Shown in pieces: positions 2,671 through 34,644 of a stretch of 47,422 bases of DNA (position 1 is the stretch's first letter; every line of letters begins with the position of its first letter). Source of the stretch: a virus; UHGV virus genome UHGV-0327568. One strand, written 5' to 3'. The notes beneath the pieces were generated by a model. That model was not told the origin of the DNA. It was given only the letters and a program-made list of their open reading frames with translations, and searched no databases. The translations under genes were made by a program, and so were the position numbers.

Positions 2671-3240
2671 TCACCCTAAATTAACAAACTCTTTATGGTT
2701 ATCAACCATGAATTCGCGAACTGCCTTTTCTGCTGCTTCTATGGTATTAAACAAACCAATGTGAACCCTCTTCCTGTTTATTGACGTCTGCGCTCTCCAT
2801 TTGTTGCACCTTTTGTCGAAATGCACGCCTTTTACACCAGATTTGTTTGTCGATTTCTTTTTCATGTTGAACATGTTTTGTTGATGACTAGAAATCCTAA
2901 GATTGCAAATCCGATTGTCTGATTTATCACCATTTACGTGGTCTATTTCATAACCATCAATGTCTTCTCCGTAGACATAAATCCACGCAAGTCTATGAGC
3001 TTTCCTAATCTTTCCTAGCAAAGTTATCGTGATATAACCTTCCTGATTCTTGTGGCCCACCAGCTTTCCAGAACGCCACAGCGTTCCATGTGATTTTATT
3101 GCGGTAAAAAGACCAGTTTCAGGGTCATACTCAAGATATTCCATTATCTCCTTTTGAGTTATGAATTGAGTTTTTCTTTTTCTCTCTAAAGCATTTAAGC
3201 CTGCACCCCGAGCAGCAGAACTCAGCTCTTGATGTGCCAT
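2671..3240 (-). CDS. HNH homing endonuclease with AP2 DNA-binding domain
   Basis: 189 aa. IDHVNGDKSDNRICNLR (HNH_3) then KSGVKGVHFDK...WRAQTSINRKRVHIGLFNTIEAAEKA (AP2). Confidence 0.8.
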   Translation of the reverse strand: MAHQELSSAARGAGLNALERKRKTQFITQKEIMEYLEYDPETGLFTAIKSHGTLWRSGKLVGHKNQEGYITITLLGKIRKAHRLAWIYVYGEDIDGYEIDHVNGDKSDNRICNLRISSHQQNMFNMKKKSTNKSGVKGVHFDKRCNKWRAQTSINRKRVHIGLFNTIEAAEKAVREFMVDNHKEFVNLG

Positions 3241-26401: not shown

Positions 26402-26428
26402 AAAAGCCCCGACAGGGGCTTTGTTTAC
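26402..26428. terminator. Bidirectional rho-independent terminator
   Basis: AAAGCCCC-gaca-GGGGCTTT. Confidence 0.65.
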
Positions 26429-26679
26429 TTATGGTCGCGAAGTTGAATGAGATTATCAATCAGCCGCTGGATTGCGGCATTATCTTTAAATGCGATGTAA
26501 ATTTCAGACTCATCAGTATCATTAGTTTTATCGCCAGGAATGCCGCGATTTATGGTATTCGCAAAAGCTATTAACTTTTCTCCATTGCAATAGCCAAATT
26601 TAATGCCAACGTAACCATCGCCAAGACGGGCAACTTTTGAGCCATCTTTCTGAGTAAAAACACCATTCTTTTTCATCAC
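26425..26679 (-). CDS. Hypothetical protein
   Basis: 84 aa; last gene of the leftward cassette. Confidence 0.45.
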   Translation of the reverse strand: MMKKNGVFTQKDGSKVARLGDGYVGIKFGYCNGEKLIAFANTINRGIPGDKTNDTDESEIYIAFKDNAAIQRLIDNLIQLRDHK

Positions 26680-27215
26680 TAAATCCTCATTGGCATAACG
26701 ATAACTTTTGCAGTCTCGCCAGTAGGCGCACTGATGTTTGCGACGGCGGCGCTGGTGTTGCCATTCAACTCAAATAGCACCGCTTCAAATTTCGGGTTAA
26801 ACAACTTCGCCAGCTTCTCAACATCTTCCAGGTATTTGGCATTAAAGCCAATCTGTTCCGCTGGTGCGGTCTGCTTAGGAATGACGCGATCAATATCAGG
26901 GAATCGGCCATTAATCTCAGAGCAGATACCTGCGCCTACCATGATTTCATGCTCGTCATGGTAAGTAACAATACCTGTTTTGGTGTCCAGTAGCGCATGC
27001 GCATAACGCTTAGTTGGCGACTTGCTTACCGATACGATGACGTTACTTTTTATCTTGTTTTCGTGCTTACTGGCAATCATGGCGCGATGACCGTCAGTTG
27101 ACGCAATGCGACCATCAGGCATGAAGCAGATTCCGTTCAGGTAGTAGCGCACATCGTTGCGCGCCTGAAATATTAATGCTGATTCAAGTAATAGTTTGTT
27201 GATTTTTAGTTTCAT
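26679..27215 (-). CDS. Truncated DNA polymerase III beta sliding-clamp (DnaN) homolog
   Basis: 178 aa. NDVRYYLNGICF...ASTDGHRAMIA matches DnaN QDVRYYLNG...ATDGHRLAV. INGRFPDIDRVIPK matches DnaN LVDGRFPDYRRVLPK. C-terminal AKVIVMPMRI matches the DnaN C-terminus AAYVVMPMRL. Covers domain II and a shortened domain III only. Confidence 0.6.
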   Translation of the reverse strand: MKLKINKLLLESALIFQARNDVRYYLNGICFMPDGRIASTDGHRAMIASKHENKIKSNVIVSVSKSPTKRYAHALLDTKTGIVTYHDEHEIMVGAGICSEINGRFPDIDRVIPKQTAPAEQIGFNAKYLEDVEKLAKLFNPKFEAVLFELNGNTSAAVANISAPTGETAKVIVMPMRI

Positions 27216-27388
27216 CACTTCACCTTTATCATGTGTTGTTTTGCAACCTTCAGGCATTCATCGAAAATCTTGCCATTCTTTTCACTCTGGTTGCTCCTGT
27301 AGTGGGTAATTGCGGCCTCTATAGCCGCGTTGTCGATGCCTGGCAGTTTTTCGCGCAGGTTTTTCTCTATGAATTGCTCGGGGTTCAT
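27215..27388 (-). CDS. Small hypothetical protein (57 aa)
   Basis: MNPEQFIEKNLREKLPGIDNAAIEAAITHY... TGATG overlap with the clamp-like gene and RBS GAGGTCAG. Confidence 0.35.
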   Translation of the reverse strand: MNPEQFIEKNLREKLPGIDNAAIEAAITHYRSNQSEKNGKIFDECLKVAKQHMIKVK

Positions 27389-28320
27389 TAAACTGACCTC
27401 ATGAATGCTTTAATGAATTCCGCTGCGACTTGCGGGACGATGGCATTGCCATAACCGCGCAGTCGTCCCACCCTGGCGGGAATCCCATTAGCCAGCGGGA
27501 ATGTGCCGGGCTCAACTGGCCGGAACTTTCCATCCCGGCATCCGAGCCAGTCAGCATCTGACCAGAATCCGTGATGCGGATTGGTTGCGTTATCGCTGCA
27601 AAATCCTGCAGACGCTGTTGTATCTTGCTCCCGTCCTTCCGATACATAGTTAGTGCGTTTTCTGGTGCAGCAGCCCTGTCGTTGCTGTTCGCAGTTGGGC
27701 TGGGCAATGCGGCCAGCTTCGCCTGTCCGGGTAGCTTCAGGCATATCTTTCTGTCCTTCCCGCTGTAGCAATGCGTGCTGCCAGTTGTGTCGTTCACTAT
27801 TGGTGTCGCCCAGTTGCATCGCGCCGAAGAAAAGTCTGTCGCGTTTGTGTGGTGCACCGACGCTGCACGCTGGCAATACTGCCGACCCGCAGGCGTAGCC
27901 TTTGTCTTCCAGGTTAAGGAATACAAAATCGAGCCAGTGCTTTCCAATTGCTGCCGCAACCTGCTCTCCAAACAGCAATTGAGGCTTGCACTCTCTGATG
28001 AGCCTGAGAAATGCTGGGGCAAGGTGCCGCTCGTCGTCAAATCCGAGAGACTTACCGGCAACGCTAAACGGCTGGCAAGGTGGTGATCCTGTCCAGAGCT
28101 GAGTGCTTGCTGGTATTCCAGCCAACTGGAGTGCAAGGGGCCACCCTCCGATTCCGGCAAAGAAGTGACACTGTGTAAATCCTTCCAGGTCTGAAGGGGT
28201 GACTTCGGTGATTGATCGTTCATCGACATATCCGTAAGGAATTAGTTTATTGTTAATTAACTCTCGCAGCCACGCCGCTGCACTTGCGTCCCATTCGTTG
28301 TAGTAGCTGGCTGTCATCAC
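27388..28320 (-). CDS. DNA (cytosine-5)-methyltransferase
   Basis: Motif I FFAGIGG, motif IV SPPCQPFS, ENV-like FGEQV, motif VIII HKRDRLFF and motif X GNAIVPQVAAEF. A long Q/R/C-rich variable region lies between motifs VIII and X. Confidence 0.85.
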   Translation of the reverse strand: MMTASYYNEWDASAAAWLRELINNKLIPYGYVDERSITEVTPSDLEGFTQCHFFAGIGGWPLALQLAGIPASTQLWTGSPPCQPFSVAGKSLGFDDERHLAPAFLRLIRECKPQLLFGEQVAAAIGKHWLDFVFLNLEDKGYACGSAVLPACSVGAPHKRDRLFFGAMQLGDTNSERHNWQHALLQREGQKDMPEATRTGEAGRIAQPNCEQQRQGCCTRKRTNYVSEGREQDTTASAGFCSDNATNPHHGFWSDADWLGCRDGKFRPVEPGTFPLANGIPARVGRLRGYGNAIVPQVAAEFIKAFMRSV

Positions 28321-29132
28321 AGCTTCTCCAGAATAGCCAGAACTTCACTCAACTCAGCGGAAGGAAGGCGCAAAAATTCTTCTGTCTCCTGTGCCACATG
28401 ACCCTCAGCGACAACCATATGGTCTGCTTCTTTCAGCAACTGAATCAGGCGGTCAATCGGCTTAACTTTTTTGGCCTTGAGCGTTTTAGCCGTCACCTTA
28501 TCTTTGCCCTGCGCTTTCGCTTCCTCAACGGCGGCATCAATAACGTTAACGGCATCATCGCCATGCTCACGTGCGACCGCAACGGCGTTGGCATAGCTGA
28601 TTTGGCCTGCATTGATACGCTGCTTGATGGCATCAGGTACATCACCAAGTGACAGGTGCATTTGCACATCAGACACAGAGCGCCCGACCTTCTTGGCGAT
28701 TTCTTCATTCGTCCACCCGAACCCTTTGAGGCGCACATAAGCCTTTGCACGCTCAAGCGGGTCGAGTTGCTTGCCCTGACTTGAAGACACCATGAAGGCG
28801 ATTTTATCCGCCTCATCGCCGGTGAAGTCTTTGCACTCAATTCGCGCAATTGGCACGCCGCGCTCAATGGCACGCAGTGCTCCAAGGTAACGATGCTGGC
28901 CGTCAAGAATCTTGATGCGCTTTCCGTCGGCATCAGGAATAACAGTTAACGCCGGGATTGGCTGTCCTGATTCCCAACACTGCGCGAAGTATTCAACGTG
29001 CTGCTCATCGGCTTCGCGGATGTTGTACCCCGGCTCAAGGTAAAGCTGGTCGACAGGGACCTGATAACCTTTGTTGACCACGATTCCGCCGCGAGTTTCT
29101 TTGTCTGAGTAAATTTTTCCGAGAGATGTCAT
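28317..29132 (-). CDS. ParB-like nuclease-domain protein
   Basis: KILDGQHRYLGALRA is the ParB/Srx-type DGxHR motif. Start chosen at ATG 29132 (GAGGGA RBS). The ORF track extends to 29168. Confidence 0.65.
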   Translation of the reverse strand: MTSLGKIYSDKETRGGIVVNKGYQVPVDQLYLEPGYNIREADEQHVEYFAQCWESGQPIPALTVIPDADGKRIKILDGQHRYLGALRAIERGVPIARIECKDFTGDEADKIAFMVSSSQGKQLDPLERAKAYVRLKGFGWTNEEIAKKVGRSVSDVQMHLSLGDVPDAIKQRINAGQISYANAVAVAREHGDDAVNVIDAAVEEAKAQGKDKVTAKTLKAKKVKPIDRLIQLLKEADHMVVAEGHVAQETEEFLRLPSAELSEVLAILEKL

Positions 29133-29141
29133 CTTTCCCTC

Positions 29142-29256
29142 ACTTTGATAAACAGATTGCACTGGCAATGGCGAATCCGATAACGATTAACGCCAGCTTG
29201 ATTTTGAACTTATCCCACGCCTTCAGGTCTTCTTTTCGTATTTCGTGGCGGATCAT
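29142..29256 (-). CDS. Small membrane protein (38 aa)
   Basis: MIRHEIRKEDLKAWDKFKIKLALIVIGFAIASAICLSK with one TMD. ATGA overlap with the upstream gene. Confidence 0.35.
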
Positions 29257-29564
29257 TGGGGTTCTCCGAGTGCTTTTGCGATTGCGGCATAGGCCTTGCT
29301 CAAGGCAGTGGCATTCCTTTTTGTTGGCGTAGTGAAGACTACAAGCATCTCCAGAGCCTCCAGCAATTCCGGCGCAGCGGCCATCATTCGTTGGTTGGCA
29401 ACTTGAACCTCAACTTCAGGGTCAAACTCAACCCAGCCGACAGGAATAATCACTCCATAAGACTGGTCGTCATCTGTTGATTTTGGCCCTATTGCCCTGC
29501 TGTTATCTCCAAACCACGGCCCCGGCGTACCTTTGAATTCATTCATCCTCATCACCTCTAACAT
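29253..29564 (-). CDS. Hypothetical protein
   Basis: 103 aa; first gene of the leftward cassette. Confidence 0.45.
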   Translation of the reverse strand: MLEVMRMNEFKGTPGPWFGDNSRAIGPKSTDDDQSYGVIIPVGWVEFDPEVEVQVANQRMMAAAPELLEALEMLVVFTTPTKRNATALSKAYAAIAKALGEPQ

Positions 29565-29586: not shown

Positions 29587-29615
29587 ACTATAGCGACACC
29601 CTCAATCTACGTCAA
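29587..29615 (-). promoter_or_regulatory. Leftward sigma70 promoter TTGACG-17-TATAGT
   Basis: Reverse complement of 29610-29615 is TTGACG, spacer 17, reverse complement of 29587-29592 is TATAGT. The hexamers are identical to the rightward promoter at 6804-6832. Confidence 0.55.
29604..29615 (+). repeat. Conserved element copy 5: AATCTACGTCAA (partial copy TCTACGTCA at 29575-29583)
   Basis: Within CTCAATCTACGTCAACAC; divergent junction 29564 (-) / 29777 (+). Confidence 0.7.
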
Positions 29616-33910: not shown

Positions 33911-34162
33911 TCATACACACTCATCAAGCTGACGGCGCAACATGCATAGCGCACCGCGTGGCATTGCCTGGCGACTCACACCGTCGAAAATCTTCCGGTT
34001 GAGGTAATTGGTCACTCGCGGCCTGATAGCCTGCCAGCACGCCTTAATGCTGCCATTTACCGGGCGGCGCTCGAGCATGGCGAACTTTGCAGATAGTTCC
34101 AGCGTCACCAGTGCATCAAGGTATTGCTCGCAGGCATAGCGATTTTCGTTATCCATCATCAT
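33911..34162 (-). CDS. Hypothetical protein
   Basis: 83 aa; ATGA overlap with the upstream HNH gene. Confidence 0.4.
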   Translation of the reverse strand: MMMDNENRYACEQYLDALVTLELSAKFAMLERRPVNGSIKACWQAIRPRVTNYLNRKIFDGVSRQAMPRGALCMLRRQLDECV

Positions 34163-34644
34163 TTACCATGGTTCTCATGAAAATCATACTTAACCTCCGC
34201 CTTTCTCCTTGCTTCAGCGGCCATATTTAAGTCAGAAAACAATCCAAGATGAATCTTTACGCCATCAACTTTTATGTTTGAGGCCCATTTTTTATGTTGT
34301 TTATCCCATGAAACACCAGTAACACCTGATTTGTTTGTCACCCTGAACTTCATGTTGTGATTATTCTCTTTTGGAGTGACAAGCCTGAGGTTATCTATCT
34401 TATCGTTTGTTTTTTTGTGGTCTATATGATCAATCTGCATTCCGTCAGGAATTTTCCCATTATGCATTTCCCAGATGATGCGATGAACAAGATACTTGAC
34501 GCCATAGATTCCAACAATCTTATATCCATTGCCTCCTACCGCCTTCACCTCGCTTCCGATTTTCACTCTGTTTGAGGTTCTTATCTTCCAGTAAATAGCC
34601 CCATCGCAATAATAAAAAATATCTGACCAATCATTTATCTTCAT
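34159..34644 (-). CDS. HNH homing endonuclease with AP2 domain
   Basis: IDHIDHKKTNDKIDNLR plus KSGVTGVSWDKQHKKWASNIKVDGVKIHLGLFSDLNMAAEA. Third paralog of this type. Confidence 0.8.
   Translation of the reverse strand: MKINDWSDIFYYCDGAIYWKIRTSNRVKIGSEVKAVGGNGYKIVGIYGVKYLVHRIIWEMHNGKIPDGMQIDHIDHKKTNDKIDNLRLVTPKENNHNMKFRVTNKSGVTGVSWDKQHKKWASNIKVDGVKIHLGLFSDLNMAAEARRKAEVKYDFHENHGK

Follow-up and report, generated by a model that had tools for sequence, protein, structure and literature searches.

We analysed a virus genome of 47,422 nucleotides (UHGV-0327568). This stretch, which we call the window, is essentially the whole ~47 kb genome of a siphophage, and its DNA is about 92% identical to that of Vibrio phage pYD38-A, of Aeromonas phage pIS4-A (genus Roufvirus), and of a large number of Klebsiella phages. 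Set among its rightward head and tail genes is a leftward operon (29564..26425), which encodes, in order, a protein of 103 amino acids (aa), a ParB-like helix-turn-helix (HTH) protein, a C5-methyltransferase, a 57-aa protein, a short homolog of the beta sliding clamp (DnaN), and an 83-aa protein. We refer to the short homolog as the mini-clamp.

The open reading frame of the mini-clamp lies exactly at 26679..27215 on the minus strand. Its product (MKLKINK...VMPMRI) has 178 aa and is followed by a TAG stop codon at 26679-26681. A competing, longer reading of 192 aa, which begins with an ATG at 27257, is frequent among database gene calls. We favor the 178-aa start because a Shine-Dalgarno-like AGGTGA (27220..27225, minus strand, read from the sequence) lies 4 nucleotides 5' of its ATG, because this ATG shares bases with the stop codon that ends the 57-aa gene upstream (TGATG), and because conservation across the family starts there. 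The overlap of stop and start codons also suggests that translation of the mini-clamp is coupled to that of the 57-aa gene.

The original prediction, which was made from the DNA without database searches, was that this protein is a truncated DnaN homolog that has domain II and part of domain III and lacks domain I. The alignments bear this out. When we used phmmer to compare the mini-clamp to all chains in the Protein Data Bank (PDB), beta sliding clamps alone were matched; the best match was 6amq_A (E = 2.6e-11), and the E. coli clamp (1mmi_A) was matched with E = 8.2e-11. Residues 7-116 of the mini-clamp aligned with residues 136-253 of E. coli DnaN, and residues 120-178 aligned with residues 315-366. 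A profile built from 130 diverse members of the mini-clamp family, which are only ~25-50% identical to the window protein, matched E. coli DnaN with E = 1.6e-32. Furthermore, the motifs that had been picked out by eye (NDVRYYLNG, TDGHR, GRFPDIDRVIPK, and VMPMRI) are all present, and they are the conserved ones. Because of the PDB search, the profile match, and the shared conserved motifs, we conclude that the similarity to DnaN is homology and does not reflect short chance motifs.

The curated models of the clamp score the mini-clamp below their cut-offs: PF02767 gives 19.3 bits (cut-off 27), PF02768 gives 14.9 bits (cut-off 27) and covers profile positions 69-121 only, and TIGR00663 gives 40.9 bits (cut-off 137.65). 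These low scores explain why the precomputed Pfam annotation is empty for all of the relatives. (Clamp domain I, PF00712, had no match in our Pfam search of the mini-clamp.) Among phage protein families, the mini-clamp matches PHROG 3007 over its full length (E = 6.5e-59, with residues 1-178 on profile positions 1-186 of 190), and it matches PHROG 947 with E = 2.7e-10. PHROG 3007 and RefSeq label this family as a RusA-like resolvase. This label can be ruled out, as the RusA signal is absent and the fold is that of a clamp.

Indeed, AlphaFold2, when given the 130-member alignment, produced a very confident model of the monomer (mean predicted local distance difference test score, pLDDT, of 97.1; predicted template modeling score, pTM, of 0.91). 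The model has the beta-alpha-beta-beta-beta repeat of the clamp fold. In structure-based alignments, the mini-clamp is 35% identical to the E. coli clamp, 33% identical to the clamp of Stenotrophomonas, and 10-26% identical to the remaining clamps. That the identity is highest to gamma-proteobacterial clamps suggests that the mini-clamp derives from a captured proteobacterial dnaN of the host type.

Each clamp domain consists of two beta-alpha-beta-beta-beta halves. As judged from the alignments and from the secondary structure of the model (DSSP), residues 1-116 of the mini-clamp (26868..27215, minus strand) correspond to clamp domain II together with the connector between domains II and III (E. 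coli DnaN ~130-253). Residues 117-178 (26682..26867, minus strand) correspond to the C-terminal half of domain III (DnaN ~316-366), as judged from HMMER, from the part of PF02768 that was matched (69-121), and from the model, in which this part comprises a helix (126-139) and terminal strands that end in MPMRI. Only the second half of domain III is retained, and the first half (DnaN ~254-311) has no counterpart. The alignment of the last 60 residues is ambiguous between the two halves of domain III, but DnaN 316-366 is the better match, with IGFN..Y and MPMR. Within domain II, the second channel helix (DnaN ~197-208) is missing in this subfamily, as judged from the model of the mini-clamp: strands 59-63 and 73-77 are separated by a short loop with a conserved proline and no helix. 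Some of the longer family members (193-210 aa) keep this helix and have all three channel helices.

The retained segments carry the pocket by which the clamp docks its partners. In E. coli, subsite I of this pocket comprises R152, L155, T172, G174, H175, R176, L177, P242, R246, V247, V360, and M362, and subsite II comprises H175, N320, Y323, V344, M362, P363, M364, and R365 (PMC11139829). All 18 of these residues map onto the mini-clamp, where 15 are identical and 3 are replaced conservatively (L177A, V360I, and V344A). The motif DVRYYLNG (aa 21-28; 27132..27155, minus strand), which is near-invariant in the 130 family members and also corresponds to the 148-152 loop region of beta, contains R23 and L26 (R152 and L155 of E. 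coli). TDGHRA (aa 40-45; 27081..27098, minus strand) provides the subsite I residues T40, G42, H43, R44, and A45 (T172, G174, H175, R176, and L177). The interdomain connector contains GRFPDIDRV (aa 103-111; 26883..26909, minus strand), with P106, R110, and V111 (P242, R246, and V247). IGFNAKY (aa 122-128; 26832..26852, minus strand) provides N125 and Y128 of subsite II (N320 and Y323), and the C-terminal IVMPMRI (aa 172-178; 26682..26702, minus strand) provides I172, M174, P175, M176, and R177 (V360, M362, P363, M364, and R365).

These residues are also the ones that the family conserves. The columns of the 130-member alignment that are at least 90% conserved are D21, R23, Y25, L26, G28, T40, G42, H43, P106, Y128, M174, and P175, and 9 of these 12 near-invariant columns are pocket residues (hypergeometric P = 2e-8). 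In other words, the R, L, T, G, H, P, Y, M, and P of the pocket are each retained in at least 90% of the members, and P106 is present in 129 of 130. At the level of sequence, the pocket is intact.

The mini-clamp is also basic. Its isoelectric point (pI) is 9.0 and the median for the family is 8.3, whereas the pI of E. coli DnaN is 5.25, and that of its segments equivalent to the mini-clamp is 5.56. At positions 11, 19, 134, and 137, which correspond to E140, H148, N329, and K332 of E. coli, the family conserves lysine or arginine; the share of members with either residue is 77% at position 19, 75% at position 134, and 65% at position 137. The conserved basic positions sit on the former channel helices and beside the 148-152 loop, and this loop as a whole is a DNA-contacting region of beta. 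In the E. coli clamp, Q149 and R24 are DNA contacts (PMC11139829).

What the mini-clamp lacks is the known means to close a ring. The dimer interface of the E. coli clamp is formed by I78 and F106, in the second half of domain I, against I272 and L273 and, through ion pairs, E298-E304, in the first half of domain III (PMC11139829). The mini-clamp has no counterpart of the segments that hold these residues, which leaves it without the head-to-tail interface. Nor does it have the three tandem domains (~360-380 aa) of a full clamp: its 178 aa provide counterparts only for DnaN 136-253 and 316-366. As had been anticipated for a fragment of this kind, it cannot close the canonical beta2 ring. Furthermore, the helix positions that match V321, L325, and L328 of E. 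coli are bulky and hydrophobic in just 17%, 10%, and 15% of the family, and across the family they are mostly small or polar. The loss of this second hydrophobic stripe on the helix of domain III fits with a surface that is now exposed to solvent. By the pseudo-sixfold symmetry of the ring, the first half of domain II should abut the second half of domain III (as we infer from PMC11139829), and this abutting pair of half-domains would be exactly the pair that is retained and exactly the partner-docking cleft.

If the mini-clamp were an essential part of the replisome, then close relatives should have it, and many do not. We identified 27 distinct phages with a major capsid protein that shares at least 95% identity with that of the window; the clamp gene is present in 13 of them and undetectable in 14. 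In phage VLCpiS13e (locus L130, 726-1176), the 57-aa gene is directly followed by the 83-aa gene, with no clamp between them. In BUCT541 (L129, 1929-2448) and KlebP_265 (L131, 729-1247), the slot of the clamp is occupied by an unrelated 106-aa protein (phrog_21746). These close relatives retain the cassette and yet have no clamp gene. We reject the hypothesis that this is a core gene, and the mini-clamp behaves instead as an accessory host-interaction cassette. In KlebP_265, an in-frame fusion joins the 106-aa protein to the 57-aa gene and yields a 172-aa "YppF-like" protein. The position 3' of the 57-aa gene (26425..27388 in the window) is a variable accessory slot among phages that are otherwise 92-98% identical.

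More distant phages carry the mini-clamp in other settings. In the Dhillonvirus "rolling", which has its own DNA polymerase, it forms a small leftward island among head genes; in a Kagunavirus it stands by itself, flanked by terminators; in the P22-like Murrayvirus Lumpael, which has no polymerase of its own, it lies between two methyltransferases; and in lambdoid-type contigs it is found near cII and O. Some phages that carry the mini-clamp have a DNA polymerase of their own and others have none, and the presence of the mini-clamp is independent of it. The neighbors in Dhillonvirus, Kagunavirus, Murrayvirus, and Vibrio phage K248 differ from one another and are not homologous to those in the window. 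To sample the neighbors more broadly, we used viral contigs gathered with a degenerate DNA pattern for DVRYYLNG, which biases the sample towards proteobacterial-type members. Across the 31 mini-clamp clusters from these contigs, BLAST clustering gave no neighbor family that is present in more than 3 clusters, and a Pfam census found a mixture of early genes, replication genes, and anti-restriction genes (cII, O, helicases, PolA, methylases, and ArdA). A methyltransferase of the window's type lies within 3 kb of the mini-clamp in just 2 of the 31 clusters. Among these clusters, the sole other lineage in which the two genes are adjacent is a distant high-GC viral contig (L051, 391-774 and 771-1310), where the mini-clamp directly follows a two-frame C5-methyltransferase of the window's type with a 4-nucleotide overlap of stop and start.

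With neighbors that are not conserved, a functional link to the C5-methyltransferase, the ParB-like protein, or the 57-aa gene is rejected as a general feature of the family. The 57-aa gene (phrog_4439; 27215..27388, minus strand), which lies just upstream, is not a dedicated partner of the clamp, because it is retained in relatives that have no clamp gene. We also searched the window's proteome for clamp-binding motifs and found two weak internal matches, versus a rough estimate of ~10 expected by chance; the sole match in the cassette is QMHLSL within the ParB-like protein. The proposal that the mini-clamp loads the adjacent methyltransferase or the ParB-like protein onto DNA is not supported: there is no excess of motifs, the neighbors are not conserved, and relatives keep the cassette without the clamp.

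Downstream of the mini-clamp, the 83-aa gene (26425..26676, minus strand) is the last of the operon, and a hairpin that resembles a bidirectional intrinsic terminator (26403..26422) closes the operon just past it. Upstream of the operon is a candidate sigma-70-like promoter (TTGACG-17-TATAGT; 29587..29615, minus strand) that matches the consensus at 10 of 12 positions. It is a consensus match only, and the number of promoter-like matches in the region is not above the expectation from shuffled sequence.

The "ParB-like partition protein" (28317..29168, minus strand) is a constant member of the cassette, which the clamp is not. Its Pfam matches are confined to the ParB HTH and KorB DNA-binding domains (residues 134-215), and we found no Pfam match in it to the N-terminal (CTPase/nuclease-like) domain of ParB.

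The C5-methyltransferase gene (27388..28320, minus strand) is open in two frames, with an overlapping reading frame at 27399..28229, and both frames look conserved. Frame A (310 aa) matches PF00145 with its residues 69-209 and phrog_363 along its entire length; as read from the sequence, it has motifs I-VIII, a junk-like middle, and a conserved C-terminus (...RVGRLRGYGNAIVPQVAAEFI). Frame B (276 aa) matches phrog_1008 (E = 1e-33) and has no Pfam match. Our searches with frame B gave 246 tblastn matches in phages, with identities as low as ~30%, and 2192 database proteins; frame B contains GWPTP-like repeats and its end (...LSPAHSRWLMGFPPGW) resembles motif IX. The AlphaFold2 model of frame B alone is poor (pLDDT 56). 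In epsilon15 (L132) and Klebsiella phage 2b (L133), frame A is the one annotated as the methylase, and the +1 frame has no stop for 348 and 312 codons, respectively. This gene is either a conserved nested overlapping gene, perhaps a split methylase, or an enzyme that needs changes of frame.

Elsewhere in the genome, the window, like its relatives, has genes for two helicases, for a primase and an SSB, for a Sak4-like annealing protein, and for an ExoVIII-like nuclease; neither the window nor its relatives encode a DNA polymerase. The window also encodes two paralogous HNH endonucleases (phrog_99; 2671..3240 and 34159..34644, both on the minus strand; E = 8e-66 and 8e-63). One is in the replication region and the other is in the tail region, and they look like free-standing endonucleases of the homing type.

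The mini-clamp family is large. An exhaustive search of 1.8 billion representative proteins gave 1842 matches with E <= 1e-3 and 146 with E <= 1e-10. The best 150 matches are nearly all 170-220 aa long, and full-length clamps enter only from about E = 4e-11. A profile search identified over 6300 clusters at 90% identity. The BFVD database of viral protein structures contains many short (178-250 aa) clamp-fold proteins, from phages of Pantoea, Serratia, Burkholderia, Xanthomonas, Rhodococcus, Gordonia, and Bacillus. Related architectures also occur: two viral contigs (L015, 700-1680, and L068, 9171-10151) encode a compact 326-aa clamp that aligns with DnaN 4-340 and keeps domain I, and another (L046, 11912-12790) encodes a 292-aa mini-clamp with a C-terminal extension of ~85 residues. 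Judging from its sequence, this extension is probably helical and could be an oligomerization domain.

In GenBank, the mini-clamp gene is named "DNA polymerase III beta subunit" or "sliding clamp", while in RefSeq it is named "RusA-like Holliday junction resolvase" (for instance in NC_021534.1, NC_054653.1, and NC_071151.1), a name inherited from PHROG 3007. One phage paper uses the gene as a phylogenetic marker under the name "DNA polymerase III beta subunit", and it does not appear to comment on the truncation. Our literature searches found no functional or structural study of short phage clamps. The original prediction had called clamp fragments essentially undescribed as phage tools for host takeover; this is right as to their function and structure, but the gene is widely annotated and is in use as a marker. 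The family is, in short, large, phage-borne, already annotated in the databases, and uncharacterized.

What might such a protein do? The explanation that we tentatively prefer, although we would not yet call it probable, is that the mini-clamp is a dispensable, non-ring "pocket module" that binds clients of the host clamp, and perhaps DNA, as a decoy or an adaptor. It would represent a 90-degree arc of the clamp, in which the second half of domain II is followed in space by the first half of that domain and then by the second half of domain III, and this arc would carry the docking cleft. Since it has lost domain I as well as the first half of domain III, and with them the only known ring-closing surfaces, the mini-clamp most likely does not encircle DNA as beta2 does. 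Its hydrophobic cleft, which appears to be intact, would bind clamp-binding motifs of the Q-L-x-L-F type in host proteins. Candidate clients include alpha and epsilon of DNA polymerase III (Pol III), the clamp loader's delta subunit, Hda, Pol II, Pol IV, and Pol V, MutS and MutL, and RecB. The basic surface may keep the mini-clamp on DNA. As a decoy, it would titrate clients off the host clamp; as an adaptor, it would tether them to phage DNA without a clamp loader, in a manner like that of the herpesvirus proteins UL42 and UL44. We infer the binding of peptides by the pocket, the identity of the clients, the non-ring state, and the effect on host or phage from the evidence above. Of the roles that had been suggested from the sequence alone, that of a clamp mimic for proteins with clamp-binding motifs is the best supported, by the 15 of 18 pocket residues that are identical and the 9 of 12 near-invariant columns that fall in the pocket.

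A more specific form of this proposal, which we consider possible but doubtful, is that the mini-clamp is a viral decoy: a free-standing copy of the clamp's pocket, carried as an optional cassette, that soaks up or re-routes motif-bearing proteins and so reprograms replication and repair or blunts defence. Its targets might be the delta subunit, Hda, mismatch repair proteins, translesion polymerases, RecB, or toxins that target the clamp. The host clamp has a long list of clients, to which RecB now belongs (PMC13254535), and there are precedents for phages that exploit the host clamp, such as MuC of phage Mu (PMC12867686) and a small RNA of phage lambda that raises the translation of dnaN (bioRxiv 2024.10.31.621285).

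Several observations weigh against the reading of the mini-clamp as a decoy or adaptor. The pocket residues are the most conserved residues of DnaN generally, and they lie at the junction of domains II and III, so their conservation may be partly structural. At position 11, which is a basic helix position in the family, the window protein has glutamate. Phages that lack a polymerase need the host's Pol III, and a pure inhibitor of Pol III would harm them. Finally, no specific client is singled out among the candidates.

Alternatively, the pocket might be kept for another ligand or for the stability of the fold, and the mini-clamp might be mainly a DNA-binding factor (for single-stranded DNA or primer-template) or a scaffold for phage proteins. 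The family is basic, lysine and arginine are conserved on the former channel helices and beside the DVRYY loop, and the neighbors are typically early, replication, or anti-restriction genes. Also, in a crystal of the E. coli clamp with DNA, the single-stranded part of the primed template lies in the protein-binding pocket of a neighboring clamp (PMC11139829). But DNA binding or stability alone would not be expected to preserve exposed hydrophobic residues such as L26, V111, M174, M176, and Y128, the conservation tracks both peptide subsites nearly residue by residue, and we did not find a conserved phage partner, so we consider this explanation unlikely. Another idea is that the mini-clamp self-assembles into a clamp that encircles DNA or is C-shaped, either from four copies of 1.5 domains each or as a dimer with an arc of three domains, and serves as a processivity factor with polymerases at its pockets. 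The clamp fold consists of twelve quasi-equivalent half-domains, so four copies of three units should be geometrically conceivable (although the result would be unusual, with pockets on both faces of the ring); the pocket, on which polymerases and the loader depend, is intact; some longer family members have all three channel helices; the helical extension of one variant could drive oligomerization; and beta* of E. coli, a short form of DnaN with domains II and III, was reported to function as a clamp. However, every known ring-closing residue is absent, one of the three expected channel helices has been lost from the window protein, and the face of the helix that would meet a partner half-domain is small or polar throughout the family. 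Furthermore, the AlphaFold2 model is of a self-contained monomer and is very confident (pTM as above), and a core processivity factor would not be expected to be dispensable or to occur both with and without a polymerase. We therefore judge self-assembly to be quite improbable.

It had also been suggested that the mini-clamp pairs with host beta. Such a poison subunit would join a DnaN protomer of the host, or cap an opened host clamp, and would block host replication. The host-like origin of the gene (35% structure-based identity to E. coli beta) is compatible with this, and full-length phage clamps can be toxic when over-expressed, as with Waterfoul gp48 (PMC9339283). But both partners in the head-to-tail contact (I78/F106 and I272/L273 with E298-E304) are in the missing segments, and phages of this kind without their own polymerase depend on the host replisome, which makes the formation of heterodimers with host beta very unlikely. 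Least of all do we believe that a captured dnaN is decaying here and that the mini-clamp is its functionless remnant. The ancestral architecture has been truncated at both ends and the gene is dispensable in relatives, but the family is very large, with constant length and architecture and near-invariant positions; the model is very confident; the start codon appears to be translationally coupled to the upstream gene and has a Shine-Dalgarno sequence; and in relatives we saw neither relaxed selection nor frequent frameshifts or stop codons.

Compared to DnaN itself (P0A988 in E. coli; PDB 1MMI and 2POL), which is acidic and has 366 aa and a dimer interface, the mini-clamp is basic, has 178 aa, and lacks the interface. 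The closest described truncated clamp is beta* of E. coli, a UV-inducible, 26-kDa short form of DnaN that Skaliter, Paz-Elizur and Livneh reportedly described in J Biol Chem in 1996 and that is said to begin at an internal start near Met135. Like beta*, the mini-clamp is truncated at the boundary of domains I and II (its residue 7 corresponds to K136) and keeps the pocket. However, beta* is said to hold the whole of domains II and III, which gives it two full domains, as in a protomer of PCNA, and to form an oligomeric clamp, while the mini-clamp has only 1.5 domains and lacks the interface half of domain III.

The closest functional analogues may be UL42, which is a monomer, and UL44, which is a C-shaped dimer. 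Each of these herpesvirus proteins has two full PCNA-type domains and is an essential partner of the polymerase of its virus, whereas the mini-clamp is dispensable and is a putative DNA-binding protein; no relationship in sequence is detectable. Full-length phage clamps (PHROG 947), such as gp48 of mycobacteriophage Waterfoul (376 aa), are also phage-borne derivatives of dnaN, but they have three domains, are competent to form rings, and usually accompany phage replisome genes; the mini-clamps form a distinct short family (PHROG 3007). The inhibitors gp168 of Twort and gp240 of G1, as well as MuC of Mu, are ligands of the clamp that act on its pocket, while the mini-clamp is a copy of the pocket on the receptor's side. 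Phage P1, which relies on the host's Pol III, encodes Hot, a full-length homolog of the theta subunit that replaces the host protein. Like Hot, the mini-clamp is a phage homolog of a subunit of the Pol III holoenzyme, although of another subunit.

For replication and repair in bacteria, the central docking hub is the beta clamp, which is also a drug target. Recognizing the mini-clamp for what it is would correct a widespread mis-annotation ("RusA-like resolvase" or "DNA polymerase III beta subunit"). Because natural pairs of phages that differ only by this gene exist (phages like the window and VLCpiS13e), its function can be tested directly. If the mini-clamp does bind the clients of the host clamp, then it would represent a new phage strategy, in which the receptor is copied instead of a ligand being made, and it would offer a minimal scaffold for studying the pocket or for screening compounds that bind it.

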